The notes: generated from the sequence alone by a model not told the origin. 64,000 nt of DNA from Alphaproteobacteria bacterium (GCA_050175015.1 JBFXJJ010000004.1:1-64000); one strand, 5' to 3'; shown: positions 42,429-59,210, counted from the stretch's first letter. Numbers and translations are program-made.

Positions 42429-43397
42429 TTAGGTTACTTCGGTAACAGCCCTTAGGTTACCTTCGCGGTTAATCTGCACAACTCTGAGTTTTTCTCTCAT
42501 TTCAGCAATAGTTTTTACTCTATCAATCGTAGGGTACGTGTGCAAAATACGATCACAAAAAGCCTTATAGGCCTGCTCTGAACTTTCGGCGTGGATAGTT
42601 GCAAAACAGTTATCGTGACCAGAACCCATAAGTTCCCATAGCGCTCCGGCGTTAGCCGTTGAAATTTCACCGCCGATAATAGCATCAGGAGTAAAACGCA
42701 CTATAAGGTCAATAACTTTAGCATAGTTTAAGTTGTTTGTCTGCTCTGTTCTGGAAAGAACAACGTGAACTCTATTTGGATGGGGAACAATAAGTTCCCT
42801 TGTATCTTCAACTGTTATAACCCGTTTATGAATATCAAGTATCTTCAAAAGATTGTTTAAGAATGTGGTTTTACCTGTTGCCGTAGCACCACTGACTAAA
42901 ATGTGATCGCCACGCTTAATAGATAAGAGCAGTCTTTCATAAGGATCGTCTGGCATTTCTATTTCTTTAAGAGCATTAATACGGTGAAGTCTTTCGCCTT
43001 GTCTTAAACCATAATCCTGCAAACCAAATGCAACATCGTCGGCGTGAACACGAATAGCTAAAGAAACACCGCCTGTTAAATCCTTATTATCATACATTAC
43101 GTTACGGCCGCATATCGCAGAAAAACGGTGATCTCCAGGCAATGTCGCATACAGCACAGGAGTTCCTCTTTCTGGATCAAAATCAAGCTCATATGTATTA
43201 GCAATAATATGGAGTAAATCATTTAAATAGGTACGAGATAGTTTGGGGTCTTTCTGACAAGCCCAAGGATGCGCTCTTTTACCTCTAAGTCTAAGCCAAA
43301 TCTCTCCAGGACAATTAATTGCGACTTCTTCAACATTATCTTGGTTATACCAATATGAAAGATTACGTAGAACAGATTCTAAAACAAAAAAAGACAT
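42429..43397 (-). CDS. virB11: VirB11-family type IV secretion ATPase
   Basis: EEVAIN.PG, Walker A GATATGKTT, Asp box TVEDTRE, Walker B RFTPDAIIGGE and His box SGH...TIHAES; follows the VirB10-domain gene. Confidence 0.88.
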   Translation of the reverse strand: MSFFVLESVLRNLSYWYNQDNVEEVAINCPGEIWLRLRGKRAHPWACQKDPKLSRTYLNDLLHIIANTYELDFDPERGTPVLYATLPGDHRFSAICGRNVMYDNKDLTGGVSLAIRVHADDVAFGLQDYGLRQGERLHRINALKEIEMPDDPYERLLLSIKRGDHILVSGATATGKTTFLNNLLKILDIHKRVITVEDTRELIVPHPNRVHVVLSRTEQTNNLNYAKVIDLIVRFTPDAIIGGEISTANAGALWELMGSGHDNCFATIHAESSEQAYKAFCDRILHTYPTIDRVKTIAEMREKLRVVQINREGNLRAVTEVT

Positions 43398-43416: not shown

Positions 43417-46400
43417 CTAAAATAATTCAACGCTTTGACTTGCTGACGGAGCTGGCGCTGTTGTTTTGCTACCAGCTGTAGTTCCCTGTTGCCCTGTGGC
43501 CTGAGGAGTTGTCGTGGTTGTCGACGACGAAGGCCCTGGAGGCGGAATATAAGGCGTTACAACTTGCTGCTGAGTACCATCTTGGGCTCGTGGCTGAACG
43601 TCCATATCAAGCGTTCTTCTATCAAGTCTTTCTTCTTCTTCCTGCTTATCTCCAAAGAGACGGCTCTTACCATCATCAGTAACTCTAGATTCATTATATT
43701 TTGTAATAAGTTCTGTTGCAGCTGTTGCCGCATCCTTAAGCCATAAATCTGTTCCTGGGAATACCGTAAGTCTTGTACCTGCTGGGATAAACATAACAAT
43801 ATCCAAATTGCCAACATCTTCCAGAATATCGGTAAAAATTTCGTTGAATTTTTCTTTAAAGTCATCACGAGCATCATTCGCGGCTTCAGCTTTAGCCGAT
43901 AACGTTGTTACACCATCTGAAGTTGACGTTTCATCATCTGTAGTTAACAAATAAAGAACAGCACCACTGCCAATAGATGATAACAAAGGCAAACCATAGC
44001 GTCTAACAATCTGTAAATCCACATATCCTACAACACCACCGCGTCCTTGAGCATCACCCGATACCGAACCTTCTAAATCAAACGCAGCCCCATCTGGCCT
44101 TATAAGTCTTGACCACGTAATTTGGACTTTAGGTGAAGCCTTAGAGTTAGTGTCAGCACCAGAGACCTGCCCCATTAAACGGCTTCCAGATGGTATGACA
44201 ATATTGCGGCCATCATCACCATAGATATTTCTCTCAACTACAGCGGTTACAGGCACAGGATTTCGAGAATCATACGCTCTTACAAGAACGGCTGGAATAG
44301 GTTTATCGGCAGCAATCATATTGCTTCGGTCAACAGGAAGTGTAGACATAGCCTTGCTCCACTGCAAATCAGACCAATCTATACCTTTTCCCTGTTTTAT
44401 TGCTTCTAAGCGTTTTATAAGTTCTTCATTCCCTCTGTCAAAGCTTGACGGAATATTTGCAGGAATAGCCTTTGCCATTCTTGCTTGCTGCATTCTTCTA
44501 AGAAGCGCTAAATTGTCATTACTATATCTTTCTCCTGGTCCAAAACCGCCGCCTGGACCAAGATAGCCTCCAGGTCCCTCGCCTGTACCGTAAAGTCCCC
44601 CATTGCCAGTTGTTCCTTTAGGAACAAAGAAACCATCTGTTTTTTCTTCCTCGTCTTCAACAACTATGGCTTCTTTATCTTTAAATTTTTTACGGTCTTC
44701 TTCCAAAGCTTCTTCGACATCAATTTTTTCTTTATAGCCATACATCAGTTCTTCAGGAATAACTTCTGGAAGAGGAAGATTGCGCCAGTCTCTTCTGATA
44801 TAGCCCATAAGATTATTATCCTTATCGAAAGCCTTACCTTCCTGATTGACACTACCTATAATCATATTGTTAACATCAAAAACTGCATTCTTAGCATTCA
44901 TAATACCAACATAACGATTTTGTAAGTCTCTAACAAAATTATCGGGATCGGCGAAACCTTGAACCACATTATCATTATCGCCAAAAAGACCATTAGGATA
45001 AACCCTGCCAATTACGCCACCATTATAACCTATAACTTGGCTATCAGATCTCATAATACCTGCAATTCTTCCTGATTTATCAAATATAAATAGACCTTTA
45101 TCCAAAGAACCTGCGATTTTTTGGTCTTTATCTAGAATTAAATCATCTTGAGGTTCACCCAAAACATCACCTGCTTGATTTTCTGGCTTATTATCAAAAG
45201 AATAACGTCCAACTATAGTACCAGCAGCGTTTCTTATAACTCTATCGTTATAAACTGCGCCGATGGTTTTGCCAGACACATCTATTACTAAACCGTCAGG
45301 AAGAGCTGTTCCAACAAACTCATCTTTATCATTAACCGTTCTTCTATCAGGCAAAGCCTTTGCTACCCAATCGCCTCGAGCATCAAGAACCCTCCAGTAG
45401 TTACCCTCTTTTACTGGCGGTTTTGTGCCTGAGAAATAACCAATAATACTTCCTTCAAGATCGATAGCAACACCATCATAATTCAACTTGCCGATAATCT
45501 TGCCAAAGTCATCTCTAACCCACCGGTCTCCACCAGCTAAAACTTCACCAACAACCTCTTGTTTGCTGTTAATGACAACTTTATCTGCCCTTGCCTGTCC
45601 TATAATAATATTAGTTTTAGGTTCAATAACAGTACCATCAAGCAAATGCACACCGATTACTTTTCCCGTTGGGTCTAAAACAAAGTTAGTATCTGCAAGC
45701 TTTTGTTCATCAACAAACAAGTTTGATTTATAAATAACGTTTTCTACTTTATTATAAGCAATATTATCTTTCTTGCTTATAAGATGTCCTATTATGTTCT
45801 GCTCAAAATCTAGAACAGTACCGTCATTTTTAATCCGTCCTATTTCTTTATTATTCAAATTAACCACAGTGCCATCAACATTGGCTATTCCAATAATTTT
45901 CTTATCTTGATTAATGATATACCCATTAAAAGCAGTTGTTCCGATAATCTTTTTATTATGATCTACAATATCGCCACTGAGCCTTACATGACCCATATTT
46001 TTGCCATGTTCATCAAAAACATAGCCATCTTTCTTGATTTCACCTATAGTTTGGCCTAATTTATCAATAGCAAGACCACTTGGAAGAAGCTGACCAACAA
46101 TATTATTCTCGGCATTTCTAATGTTCTTCTTATCATAAACAGCGCCAATAATACGACCGTCAGAATCTAATACTGTACCATCATATTGAACCTGTCCTAT
46201 CTGCTTCTTGTCAAGATCATAGGCTTTCCCATCAGCGGTTATTCTTCCAAGAATTTCATCATCTCGGTCTCTAATTAAGTCATCAGATATAATCTCGCCC
46301 AACAGAAAATTATCATTATCAACAACACGATTATCGGGCATAATTTTACCAATATCTCTTAGATTATTATCTAGAACTAAGCCGTTAGAAAGCATTCGTC

Positions 46401-48699
46401 CAATCAAGTGCCCTTCAAATCCTAAGGCTAAAGCGCTTTGAATAACCCTGCCAATTACTTTTTTTTGCCCATCTATAACCGTTTTATTGGGAAGCGTTCT
46501 TCCTATAATGCGGCTTTTATCATCAACGACATCACCATTATAAAGAACCCGTCCTAAATATTCCGTATCAAGACCGATAACATCACCTAATGGCACAATA
46601 GAACCGACAGGTTCAGTCCTAGAATCAAGAACAACACCGTTTTTAACAACACAGCCAACCACTTCGTTTTTAGCTATGTTAATAACTTTGCCCGAAGGAT
46701 TAGCTACACCAATAACTTCACCATTATCATCAATAGCTATGCCCTTTTCTAAATAAGAGCCTATTACCAACCCCTTATTATTAACGACTTCCTTATTCTG
46801 CAAAACCCGTCCAATGTTGATTCCTCTACGGTTTTTTACACCGCCATCAGTCTCAATAACACCAAGTAAATCGCATTGATCACTTACCGCTTGTCCAAAG
46901 GGAATGACACTTGCAATTAATTCACCATTGTTATCAATAACATTGTTATCGTCGATTACACGCCCAATAGAATATCCTGAGGGATCTACTACAGAGCCAT
47001 CTAACCTTAGACGACCGATAACTTTTCCACCTTGGACAACAATTCCATCTTGGATAACTCGCCCAAGTACAGGCATAAAATAATCTGATTTTCCTTCTTT
47101 GTATGCCACGACCGAATTATCTGCCAATATTTTAGCGCTTATTTCGCGCTGATTATTTAAAATATTGCCGTCAGGCATAACAGAACCAATTGTGTAGCCT
47201 TTGTTATCAACCGCGAGCCCGTTTTCTACCACCTTGCCAATAAATTGTCCCTTGGAATCAAAAACGTTGCCATACCATAACGCTTTTCCTAATTCTTTAT
47301 TGTCATTGGTAACAACCCTGCCGTTTTCTAAGACTCTACCTATTAAAGCTCCATTAACGCCTATAACATTGTTTTCGTGGATAATACTGCCCTTAACCGC
47401 TCCCGTATCATCAAAAACTATCCCAAAAAAGCTTGTTTTACCCAATTTAGCGTTTTTCTCTATGTAACTGCCATCAGGAGCAACCTTATCAACAACACTG
47501 CCATCTAACCCAACAATAAGACCTTCATCAAGAACCCCGCCAAGCATCTTACCTGTGCTATCAACTGCCATTTTATTAGGATTAGCAACACCTATATTTT
47601 TTCCTAAATAATCAGAAACACTACTATTGGCCATAACATGGCCTTTAATATTCCCGACAGAATCAAAAACAATACCTTTCGGCGCAACACCACCTTTAAT
47701 TGCTCCTTGGGTATCCATCATCAAACCATTAGGCAAAACACTTCCTACAATTTTTTTATTGGAATCAGCCACATTGCCATCAGGCATAACTTGCCCTATG
47801 AATTCACCGTCAATATTAACAACTACAGCTCCTTCTCTAACCAAAGTTCCTAAATAGTTGCCTCTTTCATTAATAACGTGCCCCCTAGGAAGCACACGTC
47901 CAATGCTTATTTCTTCATTACTTATTACTTGGCCATCTATCCTAGCTCTGCCTAGGTATTCTCCTCTGCTTGACAGAGCAAAACCTAACGGCATAAGCTC
48001 ACCAAAGACCTTGTCTTCAATCGATTTAGCAGTGTTAGCAAAAACCATTTTACCAACGATCTTGTTATCTGATGATGTAATAGAACCGTCAGGCATAATC
48101 GAACCTATAACATCTCCGTTATAAGATGCGACAGTTCCTTGATAAAGAATGCTTCCTATGGGCAAATCAGCTTCAACCTCAACAGGTGACTTACGATAGA
48201 CAGTACCATCAGGCATAACATAACCAGTTTTAATACCTCGATTGTCAACGAAATCACCCTCAGAAATAACTCTGCCAATAACTTCACCAAAACTATCAAT
48301 TACTGGAGCTGGTTTTATAACCCTTCCTATAATATTGTTAGCCTTGTTAAAGACCGTACCATCAGGAGCAGCTTTTCCAATATTTTTGCTGGTTTTAGAA
48401 CTAACCGTGCCATCAGGCATAACTCTTCCTAAAACTTTTCTATCATTAGCAATAACAACACCTTGAGAAAGCAGCCCGCCTATAATTTTTTTGCTTTTAT
48501 CGATAACATATCCATCAGAAAGGAGCATACCTATAACGTCTTCATTATTATCAATGACAACACCATCAGGCATAACATAACCAAGAAAACTACCATCTAA
48601 AGCAACAACGGAATCTTGATTAGCGCAGGCAATATTAGAGCGCAAGGTTAGCATCAAGCCAACCATCAAAAGCACCAATTTTGCCCTTAGTATCCTCAA
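43417..48699 (-). CDS. virB10: Giant VirB10/TrbI-domain protein with about 1270 aa of N-terminal beta-repeats
   Basis: TTG start with SD GGAG; signal-like N-terminus ending ACA; ~17-aa DGxVxDxxGxxIGxV repeats. C-terminal VirB10 motifs IPAVL, VERNIYGDDGRNIVIPSGSRLMG, ITWSRLIRPDG, DAQGRGGVVGYVD, antenna helix and IPAGTRLTVF. Confidence 0.85.
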   Translation of the reverse strand: MRILRAKLVLLMVGLMLTLRSNIACANQDSVVALDGSFLGYVMPDGVVIDNNEDVIGMLLSDGYVIDKSKKIIGGLLSQGVVIANDRKVLGRVMPDGTVSSKTSKNIGKAAPDGTVFNKANNIIGRVIKPAPVIDSFGEVIGRVISEGDFVDNRGIKTGYVMPDGTVYRKSPVEVEADLPIGSILYQGTVASYNGDVIGSIMPDGSITSSDNKIVGKMVFANTAKSIEDKVFGELMPLGFALSSRGEYLGRARIDGQVISNEEISIGRVLPRGHVINERGNYLGTLVREGAVVVNIDGEFIGQVMPDGNVADSNKKIVGSVLPNGLMMDTQGAIKGGVAPKGIVFDSVGNIKGHVMANSSVSDYLGKNIGVANPNKMAVDSTGKMLGGVLDEGLIVGLDGSVVDKVAPDGSYIEKNAKLGKTSFFGIVFDDTGAVKGSIIHENNVIGVNGALIGRVLENGRVVTNDNKELGKALWYGNVFDSKGQFIGKVVENGLAVDNKGYTIGSVMPDGNILNNQREISAKILADNSVVAYKEGKSDYFMPVLGRVIQDGIVVQGGKVIGRLRLDGSVVDPSGYSIGRVIDDNNVIDNNGELIASVIPFGQAVSDQCDLLGVIETDGGVKNRRGINIGRVLQNKEVVNNKGLVIGSYLEKGIAIDDNGEVIGVANPSGKVINIAKNEVVGCVVKNGVVLDSRTEPVGSIVPLGDVIGLDTEYLGRVLYNGDVVDDKSRIIGRTLPNKTVIDGQKKVIGRVIQSALALGFEGHLIGRMLSNGLVLDNNLRDIGKIMPDNRVVDNDNFLLGEIISDDLIRDRDDEILGRITADGKAYDLDKKQIGQVQYDGTVLDSDGRIIGAVYDKKNIRNAENNIVGQLLPSGLAIDKLGQTIGEIKKDGYVFDEHGKNMGHVRLSGDIVDHNKKIIGTTAFNGYIINQDKKIIGIANVDGTVVNLNNKEIGRIKNDGTVLDFEQNIIGHLISKKDNIAYNKVENVIYKSNLFVDEQKLADTNFVLDPTGKVIGVHLLDGTVIEPKTNIIIGQARADKVVINSKQEVVGEVLAGGDRWVRDDFGKIIGKLNYDGVAIDLEGSIIGYFSGTKPPVKEGNYWRVLDARGDWVAKALPDRRTVNDKDEFVGTALPDGLVIDVSGKTIGAVYNDRVIRNAAGTIVGRYSFDNKPENQAGDVLGEPQDDLILDKDQKIAGSLDKGLFIFDKSGRIAGIMRSDSQVIGYNGGVIGRVYPNGLFGDNDNVVQGFADPDNFVRDLQNRYVGIMNAKNAVFDVNNMIIGSVNQEGKAFDKDNNLMGYIRRDWRNLPLPEVIPEELMYGYKEKIDVEEALEEDRKKFKDKEAIVVEDEEEKTDGFFVPKGTTGNGGLYGTGEGPGGYLGPGGGFGPGERYSNDNLALLRRMQQARMAKAIPANIPSSFDRGNEELIKRLEAIKQGKGIDWSDLQWSKAMSTLPVDRSNMIAADKPIPAVLVRAYDSRNPVPVTAVVERNIYGDDGRNIVIPSGSRLMGQVSGADTNSKASPKVQITWSRLIRPDGAAFDLEGSVSGDAQGRGGVVGYVDLQIVRRYGLPLLSSIGSGAVLYLLTTDDETSTSDGVTTLSAKAEAANDARDDFKEKFNEIFTDILEDVGNLDIVMFIPAGTRLTVFPGTDLWLKDAATAATELITKYNESRVTDDGKSRLFGDKQEEEERLDRRTLDMDVQPRAQDGTQQQVVTPYIPPPGPSSSTTTTTPQATGQQGTTAGSKTTAPAPSASQSVELF
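44790..48620 (-). repeat. Degenerate ~17-aa (51-nt) coding repeat array in virB10
   Basis: Continuous PDGxVxDxxGxxIGxV-like units, roughly 70-75 by length estimate; boundaries approximate. Confidence 0.85.
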
Positions 48700-48702
48700 A
48701 TA

Positions 48703-51700
48703 CTATCTCCTCAATATACTTGAAAGCTGCGTAACAATTCGTCCTTCAACTTTGCCTTCTAAGTTAACAAAAGTACCATCACCTCTAATTAGTCCCACAT
48801 TCTTGCCGTCACTTCTTGCAACAGAACCATCGAGCATTACTCTTCCTATAATCTTGCCGTCTTGTCCCATAACAACGGAACCAATAGGGAGAACTCCACC
48901 AATGACGTTTCCAATAAGATTAACCACGGTATTATCAGGTAGTGCTCGACCAATTATATTATTATTAGTATCTATGATTTGTCCATTTATTCTAACAATT
49001 CCAATAACTTTTCCCTCAGCATCAATTGCCATACCTCTGTTTATAACTTTACCAATAACCATATTAGTTTCAGTCATAACCATACCATCAGATAAAACCT
49101 TTCCTATCTCTAGCCCCTTTTTATCAAGGACTGAGCCTGATGGCGTTGCAATACCTATAATCTCTCCGCCGTGGTCAACAACAACACCTCTTGGCATTTT
49201 AAAACCAAGATTATCCATAACAACCCCGTTAGGAAGCATTGTGCCTAATTTGTTGCCTATTTTGCTAACAGCATTACCATCAGACAAAATACGGCCGACA
49301 ACTTCACCATCAGTATCTATCGCTATTCCTTCTTCAACAACTTTTCCAATAATCTGCCCCCTGTTGCTTAGAACTATACCGTCAGGAGCAACAGAACCAA
49401 CAATCATACCATTAGGATTTACAACCATACCATCAGACAACGCATTACCTAAATATATGCCATCGGCTCCAATTACAACTCCCTTGCTGACGACACCGCC
49501 GATTATACTGCCATCATTTTGCAAAACCAAACCATCGGGCAGAACTCTCCCCAAGACCTCACCTTTGCGATTAACAACCTTGGCATTATAATTTGTAACA
49601 CCATATAAAGATGTATCCATTTTAATCGCTGTACCATACAACGTTGGTTTGCCTATTATACCTCTATAAAAACCCAAACCGTCGCCATAAATACTGCCTA
49701 TTTTTATTCCCTTTTTATCATAAACCGTTCCATCAGCTAAAAACTGACCCAAAACTTCGCCATTAAAGTCAGTGATATAACGGCGGCTTTCGATAAAACC
49801 TCCTAAAGCCTCACCTTTTTCATTAATAATGGTACCATCAGGCATAGTTCTCATAACACCATTGCCAGTAGCTTCACCTATCTGACCATCATCTTTAAGC
49901 CCGCCAAGCGCTCTGCCGTCAGACGTAAAACCAAAGCCATCTTTTAAAACTCGGCCTACATACGCACCATTTTTAGCAAAGACATCACCTTCAAAGTTAG
50001 CACAACCTAATTGTTCTTGTTTCTTATTTTCGACAATCCCATCTTCCCTTACTTTGCCAAGAACAACGCCATCAAGTCCTACCGCAACGGCACCTTTGTC
50101 AACGACACCACCGATTATATCATTATTATGATCAGTTACGGATCCATTAGAATTTACACAACCTATAACATCGCCTTTTTCATTGTATACCTTGCCATTA
50201 ACCCTAACATCTCCAATAACACGGCAGCCAACTGCAACAACTTTGCCCATAGGCATTAAGGAGCCAAAATAATTGCCAGACAAGTCTTCTGCTGTGCCAT
50301 CAAATAAGATGCGCCCTACAATTTTAGCTTTTTCTCCTATAATTTCGCCATTATCGTTAACAACACCTCGCATATCACAGCCCATATCAACAACAGGCCC
50401 ACCAGAAACAGCTTGTCCCACAACTTGTTCATTAGAATCTAAAATAGCGCCATCATAACGAACACGTCCGATGGTTGCATTTTCACGATCATTAACTCTT
50501 CCATCAGGCAAAATGCGGCCAACAAATTTTCCTCCTGGACCTATAGCTATACCTGTTGGAGCTAAACCTCCTATAATTTGCTTATCAAGTCCAACTATTC
50601 TGCCGTCTGGAAGCATATTGCCTATTATATTGCCTTTGCCATCAACGACATCGCCATTTTCTAGAACCTTGCCAATAATTTTACCATTATCGTCTCTTAC
50701 TATCTGTTCGTCTTTTTGAGTATGACCTATAACACTTCCATCTAAATCGACTATAAGACCATCTTTATCACGCTTGCCAATAACATTGCCATTTAAATCA
50801 ACCACATCGCCATTTGGCATAACCCTTCCTATAAGTTTGCCATTTTCATCATAAACAGGAGTTCCAAGACAAATGCCGCCAATAACTCGACCACGAGTAT
50901 CTACAATCTTGTCATCTTTTCTAACCGCTCCAATAACATTACCCTCGAAATCGACAACAGAAGAATCTGCTTTAGCTGTTCCTATAACTTGGTCGTTTAA
51001 GTCACACGCAAGCCTATCTTTCATATCGAGATATCCGATAGCATTGCCATCTAAATCAACAATGCTTCCATCAGGCAACATTTTACCTATGACATTACCA
51101 TCTAAATCGACAACAGTTCCGTCAGGAAGAACTCTGCCAATAATATTGCCATTTACATCTCTTACAAATTGGTCATCAGCACCAAGCAACCCGATTTCTT
51201 CGCCATTTAAACCGACGACTTTTCCATTAGGCAGAACTCTACCTATAATATTGCCATCAGGGTCAAAAACAAACTTCTCGTTACCATCAACTTGCCCAAT
51301 AACATTGCCATCTAAATCAACAACCGTACCATTAGGTTTCATATTGCCTATAATATTGCCATTCATATCAAGCACTTTATTATCAGGCCCCAATCTGCCA
51401 ATAATATTGCCATTTAAATCTCTGGCATAATCTTGACTTCCTATTCTGCCAATAATGTTGCCATTCGCATCAACTACCGTACCGTCAGGAAGCAATCTCC
51501 CAATAACATTGCCGTTAGCATCAACCACTGTACCATCAGGCAGCGCCCAACCTATAATGTTACCGTTCTCATCATATATTGGAATTCCTAATCGGCCAAT
51601 TTCTTTGCCATTTAAATCAACGACAGAACCATCATCATTAGCTTTTCCTATAACCTTGCCGTTTAAATCCAAGGCTGTTCCATCAGTTAAAACCCTGCCT

Positions 51701-53394
51701 ATTATGTCTCCATCAGGATTACGAATAAAATCTTCATAACCTTCGATTTGGCCAATTACATTACCATCAGGATCCAACACCCTGCCATTAGGTGCCATTT
51801 TACCAATAGACTTGCCGTTTAAATCAACGACATTGCCACCAGGTAACAATCTTCCAATAATGTTGCCCTTTAAATTTCTTGCTAATTTTTCTTTATTGCC
51901 AACTCTTGCTATGACATTACCATTAGCATCTACCACCGTACCGTCAGGCAGCAATCTTCCTATAACATTGCCATTAGCATCTACCACCGTCCCATCAGGC
52001 ATAGCCCAACCGATAAGATTGCCATTTTCATCATATATTGGAATACCGACACCACCAAGCTCCTGCCCATCAAGACCATATGCTTTGTTAGAACCTGAAC
52101 CAGTTATTCTCCCAAGCTCTGCCCCATCAATCCCAACAATGGAACCATCATCTTGCATATATCCTATAACCGAGCCATCTGGATTGATAATCGTGCCGTC
52201 AGGCATCAAAATGCCTATAGGCTTACCATCTGCTCCATAAATAACCTTACCTGCTTCACGAACACGGCCAATAACCTTACCTGCAAGGTCAACAACGGTA
52301 CCATCACAAAGCATTTTGCCCACGATTTCGCCTTGGCTGTTAATTACAGAACCGTCATCTAATACTTTACCAATAATATTGTTATTATTATCGTATGCTT
52401 GTCCTGCTTCGACAGCCTTTCCGACAATAACGCCATCATCATTAATAACAGTTCCATCAAGCTGAGCAGTTCCTAATTTTTTACCTTCGGCATCAACAGC
52501 ATCGCCATTTTCTAATATTTTACCCGCTATTTGATCATTAACATCACAAAACAACCTTCTATTTTGGGCGACACTTATTAAGTTTCCTAGTAAATCATAT
52601 ACCAGTCCGTCTTCCCCAACTTTACCTATCAAATTGCCATCTAAATCATAAACTTTGCCGTCATCGCCAATAGTTCCCATAATCTGGCCGGTTGGACTCA
52701 TTGCATATCTTGGAACTCTTGAAGAACCTCCCTTATAAGATGCTCCGACATTGAAGGTTCTATCTTTTGCATCTTTGCAAATTAATTTATCAACCGCTCT
52801 TGCCCTTATTAAAACTTTTTCAGCACGATTTTGATTGGAGCCTCCGCCCATTCCCATATCTCTTGCACGTTCACGCCAAACTATTATTATGTTGTTCTGC
52901 ATGGTTTCTGCAACAAGAGGTTCCCAAGTAAAGTCAATATTACAAGTTACCTCATCAGATAAAACTAAACCTGGCTGGCATTTATTGTCATATTTAAAAC
53001 CTTCAGCAGGAGGCTTCGCAAGCTCAATAGAAACGATTTCAACGTTAAGATTGCCATATGTACCAACAGTAAGAACGCTGTCAGCTTTTGTGCCGACAGT
53101 AACATCTCCTAAGTCGACCACCTTCGGAGTATAATTAATTGGAGATCTACGGTCAGTTAAAAGACCGAATTCAAGAGCAGGATCATTTTGTTCAACTTCT
53201 GGAACCAACGGCAAAACATCATCTGTCCCCACAATTTTAATATCTTCATATTGTTCAACCTCTTCACCCCCACCCATAATAAAGGCAAGACCAATGAGGA
53301 AAAAAATCATAGAAATAATGCCTACTATTAAAATAATAGTATTGGTCTTTTTTAAATATATATCCGATGTACTGAGATTATTATCACTACTCAT
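48703..53394 (-). CDS. Giant inner-membrane-anchored protein: TM + Ig-like domain + ~1300 aa beta-repeat array
   Basis: N-terminal TM IILIVGIISMIFFLIGLAFI; Ig-like segment (VDLGDVTVG...LTV...C...TCNIDFTWEP); then DGTVVDANGNVIGRLLP repeats to the C-terminus. Start overlaps the virB9 stop (ATGA). Confidence 0.85.
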   Translation of the reverse strand: MSSDNNLSTSDIYLKKTNTIILIVGIISMIFFLIGLAFIMGGGEEVEQYEDIKIVGTDDVLPLVPEVEQNDPALEFGLLTDRRSPINYTPKVVDLGDVTVGTKADSVLTVGTYGNLNVEIVSIELAKPPAEGFKYDNKCQPGLVLSDEVTCNIDFTWEPLVAETMQNNIIIVWRERARDMGMGGGSNQNRAEKVLIRARAVDKLICKDAKDRTFNVGASYKGGSSRVPRYAMSPTGQIMGTIGDDGKVYDLDGNLIGKVGEDGLVYDLLGNLISVAQNRRLFCDVNDQIAGKILENGDAVDAEGKKLGTAQLDGTVINDDGVIVGKAVEAGQAYDNNNNIIGKVLDDGSVINSQGEIVGKMLCDGTVVDLAGKVIGRVREAGKVIYGADGKPIGILMPDGTIINPDGSVIGYMQDDGSIVGIDGAELGRITGSGSNKAYGLDGQELGGVGIPIYDENGNLIGWAMPDGTVVDANGNVIGRLLPDGTVVDANGNVIARVGNKEKLARNLKGNIIGRLLPGGNVVDLNGKSIGKMAPNGRVLDPDGNVIGQIEGYEDFIRNPDGDIIGRVLTDGTALDLNGKVIGKANDDGSVVDLNGKEIGRLGIPIYDENGNIIGWALPDGTVVDANGNVIGRLLPDGTVVDANGNIIGRIGSQDYARDLNGNIIGRLGPDNKVLDMNGNIIGNMKPNGTVVDLDGNVIGQVDGNEKFVFDPDGNIIGRVLPNGKVVGLNGEEIGLLGADDQFVRDVNGNIIGRVLPDGTVVDLDGNVIGKMLPDGSIVDLDGNAIGYLDMKDRLACDLNDQVIGTAKADSSVVDFEGNVIGAVRKDDKIVDTRGRVIGGICLGTPVYDENGKLIGRVMPNGDVVDLNGNVIGKRDKDGLIVDLDGSVIGHTQKDEQIVRDDNGKIIGKVLENGDVVDGKGNIIGNMLPDGRIVGLDKQIIGGLAPTGIAIGPGGKFVGRILPDGRVNDRENATIGRVRYDGAILDSNEQVVGQAVSGGPVVDMGCDMRGVVNDNGEIIGEKAKIVGRILFDGTAEDLSGNYFGSLMPMGKVVAVGCRVIGDVRVNGKVYNEKGDVIGCVNSNGSVTDHNNDIIGGVVDKGAVAVGLDGVVLGKVREDGIVENKKQEQLGCANFEGDVFAKNGAYVGRVLKDGFGFTSDGRALGGLKDDGQIGEATGNGVMRTMPDGTIINEKGEALGGFIESRRYITDFNGEVLGQFLADGTVYDKKGIKIGSIYGDGLGFYRGIIGKPTLYGTAIKMDTSLYGVTNYNAKVVNRKGEVLGRVLPDGLVLQNDGSIIGGVVSKGVVIGADGIYLGNALSDGMVVNPNGMIVGSVAPDGIVLSNRGQIIGKVVEEGIAIDTDGEVVGRILSDGNAVSKIGNKLGTMLPNGVVMDNLGFKMPRGVVVDHGGEIIGIATPSGSVLDKKGLEIGKVLSDGMVMTETNMVIGKVINRGMAIDAEGKVIGIVRINGQIIDTNNNIIGRALPDNTVVNLIGNVIGGVLPIGSVVMGQDGKIIGRVMLDGSVARSDGKNVGLIRGDGTFVNLEGKVEGRIVTQLSSILRR
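48730..52710 (-). repeat. ~17-aa (51-nt) coding repeat array with recent near-identical units
   Basis: Example: acattaccattagcatctaccaccgtaccgtcaggc and acattgccattagcatctaccaccgtcccatcaggc, 51 nt apart near 51910-52000; boundaries approximate. Confidence 0.9.
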
Positions 53395-54845
53395 CGCGTT
53401 CTTACGACATTACATGAGATCCCTCTGCGAGCAAGATTTTCACAAAGAATGTCGCCTTCATTAAGGGTTTTTATCGGTCCTATTCTTAAATAAAAAGTTT
53501 CTTTTCCTGAGCCATCGGCTGGAGTATCTACAGAATAAAATGGTTCATAACCTTGAAGTAAATCCTTGTTCTGAGCTTCAATACTAGTCCACATTTTTTC
53601 TAAGTTAGCAACATTAGTATCCGATGATATTTCAATCGAAATATTGTTTCTTATCGCCATACTTTCGGTTTTTTCTCTGCTTACAAAAAATGCTGGTCCA
53701 ACATTTGAATCTCTAACTAAATCCATTCCGTTTTGAACATATTGAGCATTTGCCATATCTTGGGCAGCCGCAACCTTATGCAGCGATGACAATTCTGGTT
53801 CAGGAACGTCCCAAGCCGAAATAGCACTATTGTCATATTCAACCATATCAAGCCCAAAAGCAGGGTCTTTTCTAAGTTTTAGACATACTATTTTAGCCCC
53901 ATTCCTTAGAACCATATCGCCAACGGCTTCAACAACAATTAATCGACCGTATTTTCCTCTCGTTCTAAAGCCGACAGGAACCTCGCTTTTCTGCACAATT
54001 AAATTAACCACAGGCCTTTGCAGCATATTAAGAGCTTTAGGACCTAAATCAATGTAGGTAAAAATATCATCTCTCCATACTCTCTCTGGAGCAATATCAA
54101 CATCTGTAGGGTTGATAACGTAAACCTCTATATCAAATTTTATTTTTTCAGGGTCTACAGGAACATCACTCCACCAATTGCCTTTTTTATTATCACTCTG
54201 AGAATTTTTGCCGCCTTTAGCGCCACCAGCTCCTCCGAATGAAACTGAATTTGGAGTAGAGCCTGCAACCTGAACGCTGCCTTGCAATGGATTGTCTTCA
54301 TCCGATACTTCAATATCAACAACTAAATGTGTCAGCCTTTCCGTGTTGATACCTTCGCTTCGTACATAAAAAACATACTTATTACCTGAACGACCTATCA
54401 AAACGATATTAGAGTCAACGCCAGCTGGCATTCCTGTTGCTGGCATAACTAAAATCTGATTGTGAGAAATCTGCTGTGCTGAGAAACTGCCAGAATCACC
54501 GACCCAAGCATCTTGAATATATTCCCAATCTGGAAAATTGATTAAGGTTATCATAGACTGCCGGATTCTTATCGGCATAATCGTTCCATTGGTCCAAACA
54601 TATCTAGAATATGCAGGCTTAGTCTGACCTTCGCCCATATTGCGAAGCGGATCAAGCCAAGCTTTCTGTGTCATACCTAAGCTATAGCCCATATAGTCAA
54701 GATTCATAGGCTGATAAACCCCCTGAGATTCATTTATCTGAGTATCAACTTGATCTAAACTTTGAGAAATAGATAACGATGGTTTGATTACAAAACCAAC
54801 CAAAACTATCAAAAATAAAATTTTTAACCTTATCTTAGCCATCAT
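53391..54845 (-). CDS. virB9: VirB9/TrbG-family protein with C-terminal SPOR domain
   Basis: Signal peptide; N-domain (TLINFP..E.IQDAWVGD...SNIVLIGRSGNKYVFYV); C-domain (IAPERVWRDDIFTYID...RPVV...LRNGAKIVCL); SPOR-like tail FYLRIGPIKTLNEGDILCENLARRGISCNVV. Confidence 0.8.
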   Translation of the reverse strand: MMAKIRLKILFLIVLVGFVIKPSLSISQSLDQVDTQINESQGVYQPMNLDYMGYSLGMTQKAWLDPLRNMGEGQTKPAYSRYVWTNGTIMPIRIRQSMITLINFPDWEYIQDAWVGDSGSFSAQQISHNQILVMPATGMPAGVDSNIVLIGRSGNKYVFYVRSEGINTERLTHLVVDIEVSDEDNPLQGSVQVAGSTPNSVSFGGAGGAKGGKNSQSDNKKGNWWSDVPVDPEKIKFDIEVYVINPTDVDIAPERVWRDDIFTYIDLGPKALNMLQRPVVNLIVQKSEVPVGFRTRGKYGRLIVVEAVGDMVLRNGAKIVCLKLRKDPAFGLDMVEYDNSAISAWDVPEPELSSLHKVAAAQDMANAQYVQNGMDLVRDSNVGPAFFVSREKTESMAIRNNISIEISSDTNVANLEKMWTSIEAQNKDLLQGYEPFYSVDTPADGSGKETFYLRIGPIKTLNEGDILCENLARRGISCNVVRTR

Positions 54846-54852
54846 TATTTAC

Positions 54853-55563
54853 CTATTTAATGCTGCCGCCCATTGATGTTCCATCATTACGTCTAAAAGA
54901 AAACTCTACAACCGTAAAGCCTAAAGGATTTTTTAAACGCTCCTCAAAGGGAACTCGTTTTCTTCTAAAAATTATTCTCAACTGCGCTGTCCAATTTGTT
55001 ATTGTTGGGACTTCGGTTGTCGGCGTAATATCTGTCGTTTCATATTCCACCTGCCAAATTCCTTTGGACAGTTCATTTGAACTTAGTATTTTTACATCTC
55101 TTGTGAGTTTTTGACTACTTATTATTGCTAAAACCTTTTTCGCATTTTCTAAAAAGGATTGATAAACTGCTGGTGCTGACATTTCTTGCATTGGACCGTT
55201 ATCAAGCCATCTTGCTTTCATTTCTTCCATATCATCAACAAAAGTATTGCTGATGAGAATATACTGGCGAACAAACGCCTCAGAAACAGTTCTGTTTCCT
55301 GTCAAATCAACTGCGTGTCTAATATTTACAATCTGTCTTTCTTTGTTGCTAAACGTCACCAAAAAAGGCTCTATTCTTACAAGAGGTACTATTTGGAAAA
55401 TTGTAATAATTAAAACTATATTGCACAAAAAACTGACAACAGAAACAAGAGCGAAGGCTCTTGCTGTCCACAAATAACGTCTTTCAGCTAAACTTTCCGC
55501 AGAATAGCTGCTCAAGTATTCACTATCTTGAGAACCGTTTTCTTGTTCAATTTCTTGCATCAA
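54853..55563 (-). CDS. virB8: VirB8-family protein (copy 2)
   Basis: Single TM, PLVRIEPFLV, FVRQYI, MSAPAVYQSF, WQVEY and C-terminal RLKNPLGFTVVEF signature. Confidence 0.85.
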   Translation of the reverse strand: MMQEIEQENGSQDSEYLSSYSAESLAERRYLWTARAFALVSVVSFLCNIVLIITIFQIVPLVRIEPFLVTFSNKERQIVNIRHAVDLTGNRTVSEAFVRQYILISNTFVDDMEEMKARWLDNGPMQEMSAPAVYQSFLENAKKVLAIISSQKLTRDVKILSSNELSKGIWQVEYETTDITPTTEVPTITNWTAQLRIIFRRKRVPFEERLKNPLGFTVVEFSFRRNDGTSMGGSIK

Positions 55564-55993: not shown

Positions 55994-56710
55994 TTAATTG
56001 TTAGTTACAACTTCAGACTGAGCATATCTTGTAACAGTAAAACCTAGCGGATTTAAAAGCAAATTAGTATAAAGCCTGCGATCTTTCCTAAAAATACATT
56101 CAACAGAAGCTGTCCAATTTCTTATAATGGGTTTCATTAAGGCTTCTTGCATATCATATGTTTTAAAATCAACCTGCCAAACAGCACTTCGACCTATCCT
56201 TTTTACTCCTACAATTTTTACTTCTCTGTTACTATGCTGCTCTAGAAATTTAATAATTCCTTTTTTATCCATTCGGTATTTTCTATAAATTTGAGGCGTA
56301 GATAAGAAGAAAACTATTCCTCCTGGAGAAAGCAGGCGAACCATTTCTCCTGGATCTTCAACAATAGTATTCAGAGATTCAACAAAAAGTCTTATAAAAT
56401 TCTCGCGGACAATTTCTTTAGATGGAATGTTAGGATTTGCATGTTCAATACGAGCAATATCCTTAGATTCTTTAAAATCAAGTAAAAACAATGGATCAAC
56501 ATCTATCTGCGGGACAATTTGAAGCAATGATAATGAAAACAAAACATTTCCAACTAACATAACCATTGCTAAAAGGGTAAATAAACGCGCCAGCCACATG
56601 TAATACATGCGGCGTGGCGGTATATTTTCTTCTCTTCCCATACCAAGAAAACTTAAAGGAAGATTTGGTTTAACGTTATTGTCAGTAACAAGTACTGAAT
56701 TTTCGGCCAT
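55994..56710 (-). CDS. virB8: VirB8-family protein (copy 1)
   Basis: Single TM, VPQIDVDPLFL, FIRLFV, LSTPQIY, WQVDF and NPLGFTVTRY signature; clear paralog of 54853-55563. Confidence 0.83.
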   Translation of the reverse strand: MAENSVLVTDNNVKPNLPLSFLGMGREENIPPRRMYYMWLARLFTLLAMVMLVGNVLFSLSLLQIVPQIDVDPLFLLDFKESKDIARIEHANPNIPSKEIVRENFIRLFVESLNTIVEDPGEMVRLLSPGGIVFFLSTPQIYRKYRMDKKGIIKFLEQHSNREVKIVGVKRIGRSAVWQVDFKTYDMQEALMKPIIRNWTASVECIFRKDRRLYTNLLLNPLGFTVTRYAQSEVVTNN

Positions 56711-56736: not shown

Positions 56737-58320
56737 TTAGAATGATGAACAACCTGTATCAATACCCATTCCTTCTAAAAGAGCAATTACTTGAGCGTCT
56801 AATTGAGCATCAAATTCTAAACTTTCTAAACGTTCTTGTAAATTAGTTAAAATAGCCTCTTTTATTTCGTCAGCAGAATCATCAGCAATGTTATCTGTAA
56901 TGCTGAGCATAGCTTCAGTATCAGCACCAAGTGCACTAAAGATTGATTCCACAACATTTGCCCTGCTCTCAACAACATCATCTATAGTGCTGTCAAGAAC
57001 GCCTGTAGCATTAGATGCAATTTCATCGTCAATATTTGTAAGCATATCTTCAACTGAAGCCAAGCTAGCTTCTTTATATGCCTTCAAAGCAGCAACAGCT
57101 TCTTCAAATTTAGTTGCATCAATAACTTCTAAACCACTAGAAATGTTATTATAGCCAAATTTTGAAAGTTCAGCCTTAAGTGTAACATCTAGTTCAGCAA
57201 GTGCTTTTTCGGCATTATCTCTAACTTCATGAAGCATCATTTCCTGTTTTCTAAGCTTCATCCATTTACTAATGCGATTTTCATCTAAGCAGTTATTAGA
57301 ATTATTTTCACAAACCTTATAATCATTCCTATTAGAACTTACGCTGAGTTTAACATCTTGATCAACAAGAATATCACTTGAATCATAATTCTTGCTTAAA
57401 TCATAAATTTGACCAAACTCACCCTTGTCCTCAAGCTTAGTGTACTCACCATAAAGTTTTTCACCTGTGGCAAGATTAAAATAAAGCGTCCAAGTATCAG
57501 GCATACCAGAATAAGGTGTTAAACTAGCATTGTTTTCATAAGGTTCAAAATAAACAAACTCCTTATATGGAGGCAACGGTGTTGTCAGAACTTTTTCTTG
57601 GTTAATCCCCGTAGTAGCTCCGCAACTAGCTGTCTTAGTTGGGTGACCAAACTCATCATAATCATAATAAGGGTCTTTTTTACACTTACTATATTGATCA
57701 TAAAGTTCTTGTTGATCTTCCCATAATGGGAATTTATTTTTTACATCTCCCCACTTGCTTTGATCGGCATACAAATCTACTAATAAATCTTTGCCAACAT
57801 TCCAAAACAAACGATCATGTTCTTTCATTTCTGCATCGGTAGCAGTACCTGCATCATAATCCATTTTGGCAAGTTCTTGATTGTATTTTTTTATCGCCTG
57901 CCCTGTAAGTCCGCCTCTTAATGCATATTCATTAGCTTCTGCACCGTCCATATTTTTACCATACCAAACTTCATCAGGATTAGAATAATATGTAGAAAGG
58001 CGAGCAATAGAACAAGCATCATTTAGCCTTAAGGCTTCTAGTGCAGCATTGTGTTCCTCAATGTTCTGTTGGTATCTTTCGATAAGAGCAACATCATCAT
58101 ACAATGTATTAAGCGTATTGTGAGCTTCCATTGCATCTTGAATTGTTTCTCTTGCCTCTGTGATATAATCTAAAACATTGGCTTTCTCTGGATTAGTAGC
58201 AACCTCTTTGGCTGTAACAAAAGAGAACCCGCTACTTGAGGCAGCTTCAATATTTTTAGCTGGAATAGAAATAGCTGTTATCAATGCTACTGTTAAAAAT
58301 AATCGATTTTTATACCACAT
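56737..58320 (-). CDS. Secreted acidic, largely helical hypothetical protein of the T4SS locus
   Basis: Signal peptide ending IEA, SD AAGGA, long ORF co-oriented within the locus; no recognisable family motif. Confidence 0.75.
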   Translation of the reverse strand: MWYKNRLFLTVALITAISIPAKNIEAASSSGFSFVTAKEVATNPEKANVLDYITEARETIQDAMEAHNTLNTLYDDVALIERYQQNIEEHNAALEALRLNDACSIARLSTYYSNPDEVWYGKNMDGAEANEYALRGGLTGQAIKKYNQELAKMDYDAGTATDAEMKEHDRLFWNVGKDLLVDLYADQSKWGDVKNKFPLWEDQQELYDQYSKCKKDPYYDYDEFGHPTKTASCGATTGINQEKVLTTPLPPYKEFVYFEPYENNASLTPYSGMPDTWTLYFNLATGEKLYGEYTKLEDKGEFGQIYDLSKNYDSSDILVDQDVKLSVSSNRNDYKVCENNSNNCLDENRISKWMKLRKQEMMLHEVRDNAEKALAELDVTLKAELSKFGYNNISSGLEVIDATKFEEAVAALKAYKEASLASVEDMLTNIDDEIASNATGVLDSTIDDVVESRANVVESIFSALGADTEAMLSITDNIADDSADEIKEAILTNLQERLESLEFDAQLDAQVIALLEGMGIDTGCSSF

Positions 58321-58349: not shown

Positions 58350-59159
58350 TTATTGAAGCGACTGCAAAACTGGCGCATCTGACGGATTAGAATTCAACAA
58401 CATTTTCTTAAATGACTCACGACGTTGTTTTATAGCTTCCAACTCATTTTTCTGTGTTAAAACCTTGTTTAAAAGAGCTTTTGCTAAAACATTGGTTTTA
58501 GTAATCGTATTTAAATCGGCAGCTTCATCTATCTGTTCAACAAGAGCATCTATCTGATCTCTAGTATTATCCAAGTCTTTTTGAATAATAGCCAACCTAG
58601 AAAAGATACTAATAGCATCAACTTGGCTCGTTTGCTGTCTCATTAGCATTTGATGAGAAACTTCATCAAGAGTGCCAGAAATTTTTGTTGTGAAACTACC
58701 TTCAACAGCAGAACCGACACTAAGAGGATCCTCTAAATCAATGCTTGAACCACTTGATTTCAAACCGCTAATAGTAGCACTAAAAGCACTATCAGAAGAA
58801 ACACTACTCTTCAAAAGAGAAAGTTCTGGTACGCCTGTGATTTCCTCATTGTCGCCCATAACACCTTTTCTTAAATAAGTATTATAATCTGAAACTTTCT
58901 TTTCTAAATCGTTGTCTCTCTCATCAGCAAGATCTGTTCTCTTTTTGGCTGTATTTATAGCTTTTGTTTCTTTAAAGTCTAAAGGCTTATTGGCCTCCAG
59001 AGCCATACAAAACTGACAACAAATACAAGCGCATGATGTACAGGGGTATGGGCAACAGCACCATATTACTATACACAAATTACAAGCGAACGAACTTTTC
59101 AATGGTATTGATACCATCATTAAAAGTGCTGCTAAAAAACTTAACATTTTGCGACGCAT
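58350..59159 (-). CDS. Secreted VirB5-like protein with a Cys-rich N-terminal cap
   Basis: Signal ending SFA, then CNLCIVIWCCCPYPCTSCACICCQFC; C-terminal RDQIDALVEQIDEAADLNTITKTN resembles the VirB5 helix-loop-helix. Start uncertain (59195, 59159 or 59147). Confidence 0.6.
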   Translation of the reverse strand: MRRKMLSFLAALLMMVSIPLKSSFACNLCIVIWCCCPYPCTSCACICCQFCMALEANKPLDFKETKAINTAKKRTDLADERDNDLEKKVSDYNTYLRKGVMGDNEEITGVPELSLLKSSVSSDSAFSATISGLKSSGSSIDLEDPLSVGSAVEGSFTTKISGTLDEVSHQMLMRQQTSQVDAISIFSRLAIIQKDLDNTRDQIDALVEQIDEAADLNTITKTNVLAKALLNKVLTQKNELEAIKQRRESFKKMLLNSNPSDAPVLQSLQ

Positions 59160-59210
59160 GGCTTTGCTCCAATAAACTTTGTTTAACTTTTTCAAAATAA
59201 ACTTTTACTA

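Follow-up and report, generated by a model that had tools for sequence, protein, structure and literature searches.

Which gene encodes VirB10 in a T4SS locus where two giant ORFs stand between virB9 and virB11? We addressed this question in a window of 64,000 nucleotides from an Alphaproteobacteria bacterium. The host genome is 99.4% complete and comes from a landfill metagenome assembly. The cluster lies on the minus strand, in the order virB8-virB8-virB9-A-B-virB11. The two virB8 paralogues encode 238 aa (55994..56710; PF04335 VirB8, 44.6 bits) and 236 aa (54853..55563; PF04335, 88.6 bits). The virB9 gene (53391..54845; 484 aa; PF03524 CagX, 60 bits) has a C-terminal SPOR-like extension (PF05036 SPOR, E 0.0045, under the cut-off), and it shares its last 4 nt with the start of gene A. 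Gene A (48703..53394; 1563 aa) and gene B (43417..48699; 1760 aa) occupy the VirB10-type position. The virB11 ATPase follows (42429..43397; 322 aa; TIGR02788 VirB11, 143.6 bits; PF00437). An earlier note on this DNA described A and B as adjacent giant ORFs 3 nt apart, and we confirm the coordinates and the gap. The same gene order is present wherever the ORFs of related loci were listed. In BLASTP, both virB8 paralogues match an ORF in 27 related loci, and the VirB9 extension is likewise kept in 27.

Canonical VirB10 has about 400 aa. A and B together reach ~3300 aa, about eight times the usual size. We consider it likely that they are the halves of one giant VirB10, split by one ancestral fission, with B exported separately. 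A ('VirB10-N') would be the inner-membrane half and B ('VirB10-C') the outer-membrane half.

The TrbI/VirB10 core domain is on gene B, at aa 1462-1654 (43738..44316; PF03743, 109.8 bits, cut-off 35), which agrees with the position proposed earlier (~43730-44320). It is the sole TrbI match in the genome. The phmmer matches of this region are ComB10 (2bhv, E 2.7e-20), CagY (E 5e-6 to 3e-7), TrwE (7o3j), Xanthomonas VirB10 (6gyb), and TraF (3jqo). In the sequence alignment, ComB10 (query 58-275) covers the stretch corresponding to the outer-membrane helical 'antenna'. B scores under the NCBIfam equivalog cut-offs for VirB10 (88.7 of 220 bits) and ComB10 (99.9 of 300 bits). An acidic, Gly-rich linker (aa ~1341-1461) precedes the core domain. 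Its end and a C-terminal tail rich in S/T/P/Q, read from the translation, occupy aa 1655-1760 (43420..43737).

Gene A shows no TrbI match in the Pfam profile search. Its first 41 aa (53272..53394) correspond to a cytoplasmic tail and a TM helix. More precisely, the protein has one strongly hydrophobic segment (aa 20-34), inside an AF2 helix that spans aa 9-40. A TM helix on the 1563-aa gene, without a VirB10 domain, was therefore correctly noticed before. The first 260 aa can be aligned with the N-terminal ends of both the fused giant VirB10s and the other A genes (alignment A1), and S10, Y13, K16, and N18 of the tail are invariant columns there. A predicted periplasmic domain follows at aa 86-201 (52792..53139), with a conserved Cys and Trp and an AF2 pLDDT of about 90. 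The model has the ASH/PapD-like (MSP) Ig fold, a seven- to eight-stranded beta-sandwich. Foldseek matches it to the CEP192 ASH domain 6fvi (E 1.2e-6), HYDIN PapD-like 2e6j, VesB 4lk4, and 1m1s, all with probability 1.0 and E values of 1e-6 to 4e-5. The sequence models for this domain stay under their cut-offs (ASH, 17.3 of 27 bits; choice_anch_D, 20.6 of 45 bits).

Both proteins carry long arrays of a beta-hairpin repeat of seventeen residues. Gene A has ~78 copies (aa ~232-1550; 48745..52701) and gene B has ~77 (aa 27-~1340; 44680..48621). At lag 17, the BLOSUM62 autocorrelation reaches 0.93 for A and 0.63 for B, whereas the background lies at -0.9 +/- 0.3. Autocorrelation gives hairpin arrays without a clear super-period in both proteins. 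A and B alike exceed the Pfam gathering cut-offs of Bflower_2 (PF21785, 38 bits) and Bflower (PF21784, 25 bits), the first by far. Gene A scores 320.6 bits with Bflower_2 (19 stretches), 114.6 with Bflower, and 95.4 with DUF3659; gene B scores 243.5 bits with Bflower_2 (10 stretches) and 53.1 with Bflower. So, the claim that the two genes share one 17-aa repeat holds. At the DNA level, the repeats are old and diverged, with a best internal repeat of 181 nt at 77% identity. AF2 models the last 260 aa of A entirely as short strands (29; pLDDT 81, pTM 0.62). VIA-align matches this model in blocks of ~50 residues (Z at most 4.3), and Foldseek finds no global match for it (TM at most 0.19).

The repeats bear the [DNEQ]xxG-type hairpin tip described for beta-flowers (Durairaj et al. 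2023). That work describes beta-flowers, of unknown function, as small domains whose 8-12 strands close into a shallow barrel of 4, 5, or 6 hairpin 'petals'. In contrast, ~75 hairpins run on in each protein here, and they are fused to a T4SS subunit. This fusion gives the beta-flower repeat a functional setting.

Gene B starts with a putative Sec-type signal peptide (aa 1-26; 48622..48699). We judged it by sequence rules: a charged n-region, an h-region of ~10-16 residues, and small residues at -3 and -1. In this genome, R2, R5, and K7 form the n-region, the h-region has 12 uncharged residues, and A-C-A precedes N27. The leader of each of the 12 orthologues inspected follows the n-h-c plan, and position -1 is always Ala while -3 is A, V, or L. 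By these rules, the leader looks like a type I Sec signal peptide, and the description of a cleavable-looking signal stands. Among the best 120 database matches to the B core region, 111 start with a leader, then the same mature N-terminal motif. If the leader were uncleaved, B alone could be the functional VirB10, held by a signal anchor, and A an accessory or relic inner-membrane repeat protein. A short tail, a hydrophobic N-terminus, a long linker, and TrbI do mimic a full VirB10, so B would look complete and membrane-anchored. Nevertheless, the short uncharged core and the small-x-Ala end of the leaders argue against it. In hydrophobicity, the B leader (2.2) also falls well below the TM of A and that of the fused proteins (3.3), and the fused VirB10s have their invariant cytoplasmic motif in common with A, not with B. 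We regard this alternative as improbable.

The junction between the two genes is compact. The TAG stop of A (48703..48705, minus strand) is followed by TAT (48700-48702) and by the TTG start of B (48697-48699). A Shine-Dalgarno sequence, AGGAGA (48706..48711, minus strand; read from the sequence), sits 6 nt upstream of this TTG and coincides with the last two Arg codons of A. A and B share one frame, so one stop codon splits a frame of 3325 codons. The earlier note mentions neither the shared frame nor the Shine-Dalgarno site and TTG. In L021, the junction reads GGAGG, stop, 1 nt, GTG; in L049, it reads stop, 3 nt, TTG. The stop and start are thus 1-3 nt apart in the three lineages inspected, which suggests that translation of A and B may be coupled.

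A single stop in one frame could also reflect faulty sequencing or assembly, or have arisen recently by nonsense mutation. In that case, the locus would be one gene of 3325 codons or a pseudogene. The sequence comes from a metagenome assembly, and the only run where it was found, a DNA run, is possibly its source. A second assembler gives the same bases: the Logan contig of run X1 (depth 15.7) has 0 differences over 47700-49700. Since X1 may be the source sample, this agreement is no independent support. However, the C-terminus of A aligns to its end with ~10-11 orthologues (alignment A2), with the stop at the homologous place. Moreover, a Shine-Dalgarno site and a start codon accompany the stop, along with a signal-like leader, and no hydrophobic segment like this leader was found inside the five fused relatives scanned. 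The gut clade has its two ORFs in different frames, with an overlap, so one gene broken by a nonsense mutation is impossible there. An error or a recent mutation is accordingly very hard to credit, and we take the TAG as real and conserved.

The relatives support the reading of A and B as separated halves of one VirB10. The same two-gene split is present in 15 of the 26 related scorable loci, this genome included, and the C-termini of their A genes are homologous. The other 11 have a fused single ORF of 1273-2831 aa, which matches A at the N-terminus and B at the C-terminus. In these, the tail, the TM helix, and the core are on one polypeptide, unlike here. Fused homologs had been named earlier as a sign that the stop is an artefact. 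They do exist, but only in a sister group of lineages, and their existence does not turn the stop into an artefact. We placed the split with quick tree searches rooted on two very long outgroup branches. With VirB11, VirB9, and the VirB10 ends, the 15 split loci form one clade (SH-aLRT 99, 1 change). Likewise, they form one clade with VirB11 and VirB9 alone (SH-aLRT 97). The fused lineages and the canonical outgroups fall outside it. One clade of split loci, which also speaks against an error, implies that a giant fused ancestor probably underwent a single fission. Besides this genome from a landfill metagenome, the clade contains two further lineages from the environment and gut MAGs of the 'Candidatus Scatocola' type. 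In the alignment, the fission point cannot be placed inside the fused proteins, owing to the ambiguity of the repeats. Two members have further breaks: B is broken into 411 + 1349 aa in G055, and A of G159 into two pieces (195 + 834 aa) that flank a masked stretch. It means that some decay or assembly error is present in the split clade.

Selection pressure was estimated in one pair of loci (L029 and L035), the sole one unsaturated in dS. The dN/dS values are 0.023 for A and 0.031 for B. Both genes thus appear to be under purifying selection, and for A it is strong. A is also retained in 15 of 15 split loci. A relic or accessory A, with B alone as VirB10, does not fit either result. In every locus examined, A lies between virB9 and B and never apart from the T4SS, so the idea that the 1563-aa protein occurs independently of it fails.

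The split could be real with no link between the halves. A would then be an independent inner-membrane-anchored periplasmic scaffold, such as a cell-wall or envelope spacer that surrounds the T4SS, and B only an outer-membrane cap. The SPOR-like tail of the neighbouring VirB9 would suit such a role. Against this, A and B are still adjacent in the three lineages with inspected junctions. On both sides of the junction, the flanking 260 aa of the arrays are conserved in position (A2 and A3); the mature N-terminal 260 aa of B can be aligned to 11 orthologues with hardly a gap (A3). In addition, all 28 Bflower_2 matches of the genome are inside these two genes. We find this scaffold-and-cap alternative unlikely. 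As a point against linked halves, A and B show no clear co-variation in length: r is 0.61 when this genome is included and -0.43 without it, in 13 related and non-independent pairs.

Returning to a split VirB10 with linked halves, the pair can be compared with known systems. Canonical VirB10/TrbI/ComB10 proteins (A. tumefaciens VirB10, pKM101 TraF, R388 TrwE, H. pylori ComB10) share with it the C-terminal TrbI core, with ComB10 2bhv as the closest solved structure. They also share the position between virB9 and virB11, the short cytoplasmic tail, and the single N-terminal TM helix. Here, however, there are two polypeptides, and the linker consists of ~155 beta-hairpin repeats and an Ig-like domain. 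VirB10 has been described as inserting in both membranes (PMC6362355). Since the TM anchor sits on one protein here and the core domain on another, no single chain can do so.

Our literature search found no paper on a giant split VirB10. Nearest to it are CagY and DotG, which are expanded by repeats but unsplit. The accessible part of PMC9371333 presents H. pylori CagY as a VirB10 homologue of an 'expanded' T4SS, enlarged several-fold by internal repeat arrays. CagY has 1927 aa and is a single gene, whereas here there are two. Its repeats are alpha-helical modules according to the title of Delahay 2008, in contrast to the beta-hairpins of A and B. CagY repeats recombine actively; those of A and B, by contrast, are old and diverged. 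L. pneumophila DotG resembles A + B in its repeat-rich middle between a membrane anchor and a TrbI domain, but it is a single gene of a type IVB system. In the accessible part of a preprint (bioRxiv 10.1101/2023.03.22.533729), the DotG repeat has 10 residues and another motif, and the repeat regions of DotG and CagY are proposed as a periplasmic 'collar'.

The T4SS itself is chromosomal and Rickettsiales-vir-homolog (rvh)-like. With the rvh layout, as given in the accessible part of Gillespie 2009 (PMC2653234), it shares a duplicated virB8, a virB8-virB9-virB10-virB11 cluster, and virB4 and tandem virB6-like genes elsewhere. The rvh type has duplicated scaffold genes (virB8, virB6, virB4, virB9) spread over several loci; this genome shows two virB8 copies, only one VirB4 match, and three weak, tandem TrbL/VirB6 matches on contig 3, all under the cut-off. 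A VirD4-like gene is also elsewhere in the genome; unlike in rvh, virD4 does not come after virB11. RvhB10 is given as a single component in that same part of the paper. The hosts differ as well: they are not Rickettsiales, and they have genomes of free-living size (1.1-2.5 Mb) from gut and landfill metagenomes.

We propose the following course. The ancestor would have had a VirB10 of 1.3-2.8 kaa, with the usual linker swapped for dozens of 17-residue 'beta-flower'-type hairpin repeats. In the common ancestor of the split clade, one fission would have cut the gene inside the repeat array. A would keep the cytoplasmic tail, the TM anchor, and the Ig-like domain, and remain in the inner membrane. 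B would have acquired its own Shine-Dalgarno site and start codon, together with a Sec signal peptide. It would be exported alone, and its TrbI domain set in the outer-membrane core with VirB9. By analogy with CagY and DotG, the two repeat arrays could form a periplasmic 'collar'-like part and join the halves non-covalently. A and B may re-associate through their repeats. The idea of an unusually wide periplasm or an envelope protrusion, raised in the earlier note, draws no support from these results. The split would also uncouple the copy numbers of the inner-membrane and the outer-membrane parts.

A bolder version is that the T4SS of the whole clade works with a covalently discontinuous VirB10. 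Its inner-membrane and Sec-exported halves would lie side by side in a multi-megadalton periplasmic collar or cage, whose two rings could differ in copy number. We offer this version tentatively and think it rather doubtful. If true, VirB10 would not need the one continuous chain across the envelope that counts as its hallmark, and the beta-flower repeat would be a self-associating building block of periplasmic architecture.

The window carries a cluster of type IV secretion system (T4SS) genes on the reverse strand. Pfam and NCBIfam matches, together with the ORF order, identify two virB8 genes (55994-56710 and 54853-55563), virB9 (53391-54845) and virB11 (42429-43397). Between virB9 and virB11 there are two giant genes. 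Gene A (48703-53394, 1563 aa) has one transmembrane segment and a repeat array. Gene B (43417-48699, 1760 aa) has a leader, a repeat array and a TrbI domain (PF03743). The earlier note took them for the separated halves of one VirB10, with the VirB10 domain of the larger gene at about 43730-44320. The Pfam search locates TrbI at aa 1462-1654 of B (43738-44316, 109.8 bits), in agreement with that position. It is the sole TrbI match of the genome (2.53 Mb, 99.4% complete), and the closest solved relative of this core is ComB10 (2bhv, E 2.7e-20). Likewise, A is membrane-anchored and lacks this domain, as the note had described it: it presents a single strongly hydrophobic segment (aa 20-34) and no TrbI match in the Pfam search. 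After the TrbI domain (43420-43737, reverse strand), B shows a tail of about 70 residues rich in S, T, P and Q, whose last residue is Phe.

Other features of this neighbourhood on the reverse strand are an extension of virB9, two ORFs and an endopeptidase gene. The last ~150 codons of virB9 form a C-terminal extension with a weak match, below the cut-off, to the peptidoglycan-binding SPOR domain (PF05036, E 0.0045). BLASTP recovers it from 27 related loci, both fused and split. Upstream of virB8, two ORFs (56737-58320, 527 aa, and 58350-59195, 281 aa) have no Pfam or NCBIfam match. The region around aa 50-210 of the first one matches ORFs of 1000-1500 aa that precede virB8 in 13 related loci, and it may be a candidate clade-specific T4SS component. 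Directly upstream of the cluster lies a gene for an M23 peptidoglycan endopeptidase (59211-60695). This putative wall-opening enzyme of the T4SS could replace VirB1. The flanking genes (L-asparaginase II, photolyase and ABC ATPase by Pfam) look chromosomal in type.

The rest of the T4SS is dispersed in the genome. One VirB4 match is on contig 9, and VirD4-type matches are on contigs 3, 16 and 33. Three tandem ORFs of contig 3 (195665-199522; 706, 415 and 699 aa) give weak, sub-threshold TrbL/VirB6 matches and recall the tandem virB6 paralogues of Rickettsiales. The scattered genes and the duplicated virB8 also resemble the layout of the Rickettsiales vir homolog (PMC2653234). Unlike in that system, virD4 does not follow virB11.

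We searched B against 41 genomes of the same class. Four single ORFs (1280-2838 codons from stop to stop) contain both the repeats and the VirB10 domain, each of them placed between virB9 and virB11. The N-termini of fused ORFs align with that of A (13 sequences, 260 aa). The alignment conserves a tail in which Ser, Tyr, Lys and Asn residues are invariant, and a transmembrane helix; a variable linker, a domain of ~115 residues marked by Cys and Trp, and the first repeats complete it. For the first 260 residues of A, AF2 predicts a helix (aa 9-40), disorder (aa 42-81) and a confident beta-sandwich (aa 86-201). With Foldseek, this sandwich resembles Ig-type domains of the ASH, PapD-like and MSP kind (6fvi, E 1.2e-6). 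Fused relatives thus join the N-terminus of A, the repeats and the VirB10 domain in one protein, and they bear out the proposal that A and B are a split VirB10.

A word-based protein search with residues 1-235 of A gave no match at E <= 0.001, because this region is too diverged to share 5-mers. The N-terminal alignment and the genome searches recovered the homology that it missed. None of five fused proteins scanned has a second hydrophobic segment inside. To place the fission point in fused proteins, BLASTP was run with 120-aa pieces from the junction, which matched many repeat positions equally well.

The array itself is a 17-residue repeat that fills both A and B. Autocorrelation at lag 17 reaches 0.93 for A and 0.63 for B (background -0.9 +/- 0.3), and the Pfam beta-flower family Bflower_2 matches both proteins far over its cut-offs (320.6 bits in A, 243.5 bits in B). 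The two genes share this repeat, as the note had stated. All 28 Bflower_2 matches of the genome are located in A and B. At the DNA level, the array copies are 60-77% identical, and the repeats are old. The largest internal duplicate (181 nt, 77% identity) pairs 51431-51611 with 51890-52070, at a distance of 459 nt or 9 repeats. It is probably the trace of an old block duplication inside A.

We modelled the last 260 residues of A with AF2 (pLDDT 81, pTM 0.62). The model has 29 short strands, two per repeat, and a short terminal helix of low confidence. Foldseek detects only local similarity to the hairpin repeats of propellers and Rhs shells (TM no higher than 0.19), and VIA-align aligns blocks of ~50 residues (Z at most 4.3). 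No solved fold was assigned to the array from these values, which is not proof of a new fold. The hairpins may close into discrete "flowers" such as those described by Durairaj et al. 2023 (PMC10584680), or they may form one continuous structure.

The junction between the two genes reads ...AGG AGA TAG TAT TTG... Gene A ends with Arg-Arg and TAG, and the TTG start of B comes 3 bases further on, after TAT, which is the spacing reported before. The two terminal Arg codons of A are also the Shine-Dalgarno sequence of B (AGGAGA). This layout of Shine-Dalgarno, stop and start is present in three lineages. In our genome (G000) and in G159 (locus L049, 6590-6670), the stop is followed by 3 nt and an in-frame TTG. 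In the gut locus L021, it consists of GGAGG, the stop, 1 nt and GTG. The TAG, which the note had wanted checked in reads, was seen again in a second assembly: a Logan contig of run X1 (depth 15.7) has 0 differences in 47700-49700, although X1 is possibly the source sample, so this is not independent. X2 and X3, runs of the same study, contain next to none of the sequence, and no RNA run with it is listed. A and B share one reading frame in G000. Nevertheless, stop-codon reassignment or programmed read-through is ruled out as a general explanation, because the gut-clade A and B ORFs overlap in different frames.

We found 953 proteins (968-3080 aa) that match the core region of B at E <= 0.001, many of them from animal-gut metagenomes. 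The best 120 of these all have beta-flower and TrbI domains, with lengths of 1158-1767 aa. Of them, 111 start with a hydrophobic leader and then E-I/V-T-A-I/V-D/N-F; a transmembrane-type N-terminus occurs in none of the 120. A scan of species-representative genomes with one B-core match gave 16 loci from gut MAGs ("Candidatus Scatocola", Alphaproteobacteria and others). The 10 examined show the order virB8-virB8-virB9, a TM-anchored repeat protein (1140-1286 aa), a leader-bearing protein with repeats and TrbI, and virB11.

Of 401 genomes of the class, 25 match the profile of the A N-terminus (E <= 1e-5). The match spans most of the profile in 19 of these and no more than the Ig-like domain or one repeat in 5, and the incomplete genome G342 has two weak repeat matches only. 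Against 1.84 billion representatives, the same profile gave 10458 hits at E <= 0.001; this number is unusable as family size, inflated because unrelated ASH-domain or hairpin-repeat proteins match. The N-terminal motif is present in 21 of the 147 proteins newly listed by that profile search.

To class the loci, we located the N-terminal and C-terminal modules on their ORFs. Eleven are fused (1273-2831 aa from the first Met), an arrangement that the note had associated with an artefactual stop. Yet 15 loci are split (G000, G055, G159, G057, G357 and the 10 gut MAG loci), so the split is not limited to our genome. G031 and G333, where contig ends cut the locus, were left out of the count, and G228, seemingly split by ORF length in the profile scan, is outside the 26 classed loci. 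In G055 (L047, 5047-10301), which lies closest to G000 in the trees, B is interrupted and appears as two overlapping ORFs (411 and 1349 aa), owing to a frameshift, decay or an assembly error. In G159, A is broken into 195 and 834 aa around a masked stretch.

We made two phylogenetic analyses of the loci. The first combined VirB11, VirB9, the VirB10 core and the N-terminal module (30 rows, IQ-TREE quick search); its outgroup was the canonical short VirB10 loci from G021 and G032. A single branch separates all 15 split loci from the rest (SH-aLRT 99, 1 change). Outside this clade are G002, which is fused but short, and 12 further rows that form a group (10 fused loci and the unscorable G031 and G333). 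The second tree used VirB11 and VirB9 alone, leaving out the VirB10 columns, with the same result (SH-aLRT 97, 1 change). A canonical VirB10 is encoded by one gene, so a giant fused ancestor and one fission is the simplest reading of these locus trees, which come from quick searches and have very long outgroup branches.

The ends created at the junction are conserved too. The C-termini of A are homologous across the clade (...G-S/T-F-I/V-D/N-L-x-x-K-V-x-G..., a short basic tail, stop). An alignment of the last 260 residues of A (11 sequences) has a single variable stretch, close to its beginning, and the alignment of the initial 260 residues of mature B (12 sequences) is nearly gap-free. The arrays beside the junction are therefore positionally conserved. 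In all 12 B proteins inspected, the leader is of the n-h-c type, and its residues are Ala at -1 and A, V or L at -3. Both halves are maintained: in the sole unsaturated pair (L029 and L035, dS ~1), dN/dS is 0.023 in A and 0.031 in B, while dS is saturated in all other genome pairs.

Judged from the sequences, A retains the cytoplasmic tail, the transmembrane helix and the Ig-like domain of the ancestral VirB10, and B, which has a translation start and a Sec-type leader of its own, retains the TrbI core. B would be exported and its leader cleaved, and its core would join VirB9 in the outer-membrane complex, while A would remain in the inner membrane. The two arrays, with ~155 hairpins per A+B pair, might build a periplasmic body between the halves, which would be kept together non-covalently. 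A complex prediction between the last 260 aa of A and the first 260 aa of mature B scored 0.00 in both runs and, having no controls, weighs neither for nor against binding. The lengths of A and B give r = 0.61 over 13 related, non-independent pairs, a value driven by G000; the 12 pairs of related gut-clade genomes (L021-L038, without G000) give a weakly negative value (r = -0.43). A plus mature B measures 2548-2728 aa in these 12 pairs and 3297 aa in G000, the largest seen. It is only a hint, among related genomes, that total array length may be constrained. More speculatively, the split could let the inner part and the outer cap vary in copy number independently. Freed copy numbers would fit the symmetry mismatches reported for expanded T4SSs, such as that of Cag, where the cap is 14-fold and the periplasmic ring 17-fold (PMC9371333). 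The periplasmic body would be analogous to the "collar" that has been proposed for the repeats of DotG and CagY (bioRxiv 10.1101/2023.03.22.533729). These two are also repeat-expanded VirB10 homologues, but single genes with other repeat types.

Full-text searches combining VirB10 with "Bflower" or "beta-flower" found no papers, and giant or split VirB10s are absent from the broader VirB10 literature results, judged on titles and abstract starts. One such protein has been named "type IV secretion system protein VirB10" by JGI. As far as these searches reach, such proteins are in databases yet undescribed. The beta-flower repeat was described in 2023 without a function, and the giant VirB10 is its first clear functional setting.

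VirB10 is widely held to relay signals from the inner-membrane ATPases to the outer-membrane channel. It is described as a T4SS subunit inserted in the inner and outer membranes (PMC6362355), whereas no single chain of A and B is able to span both; by core domain and gene position the pair is VirB10, but without one chain crossing two membranes. Because many of the 953 B-core matches come from animal-gut metagenomes, our data suggest that an uncharacterised, very large T4SS may be common in gut Alphaproteobacteria. Conserved and subject to purifying selection, this naturally split VirB10 offers a natural test of the need for covalent continuity.
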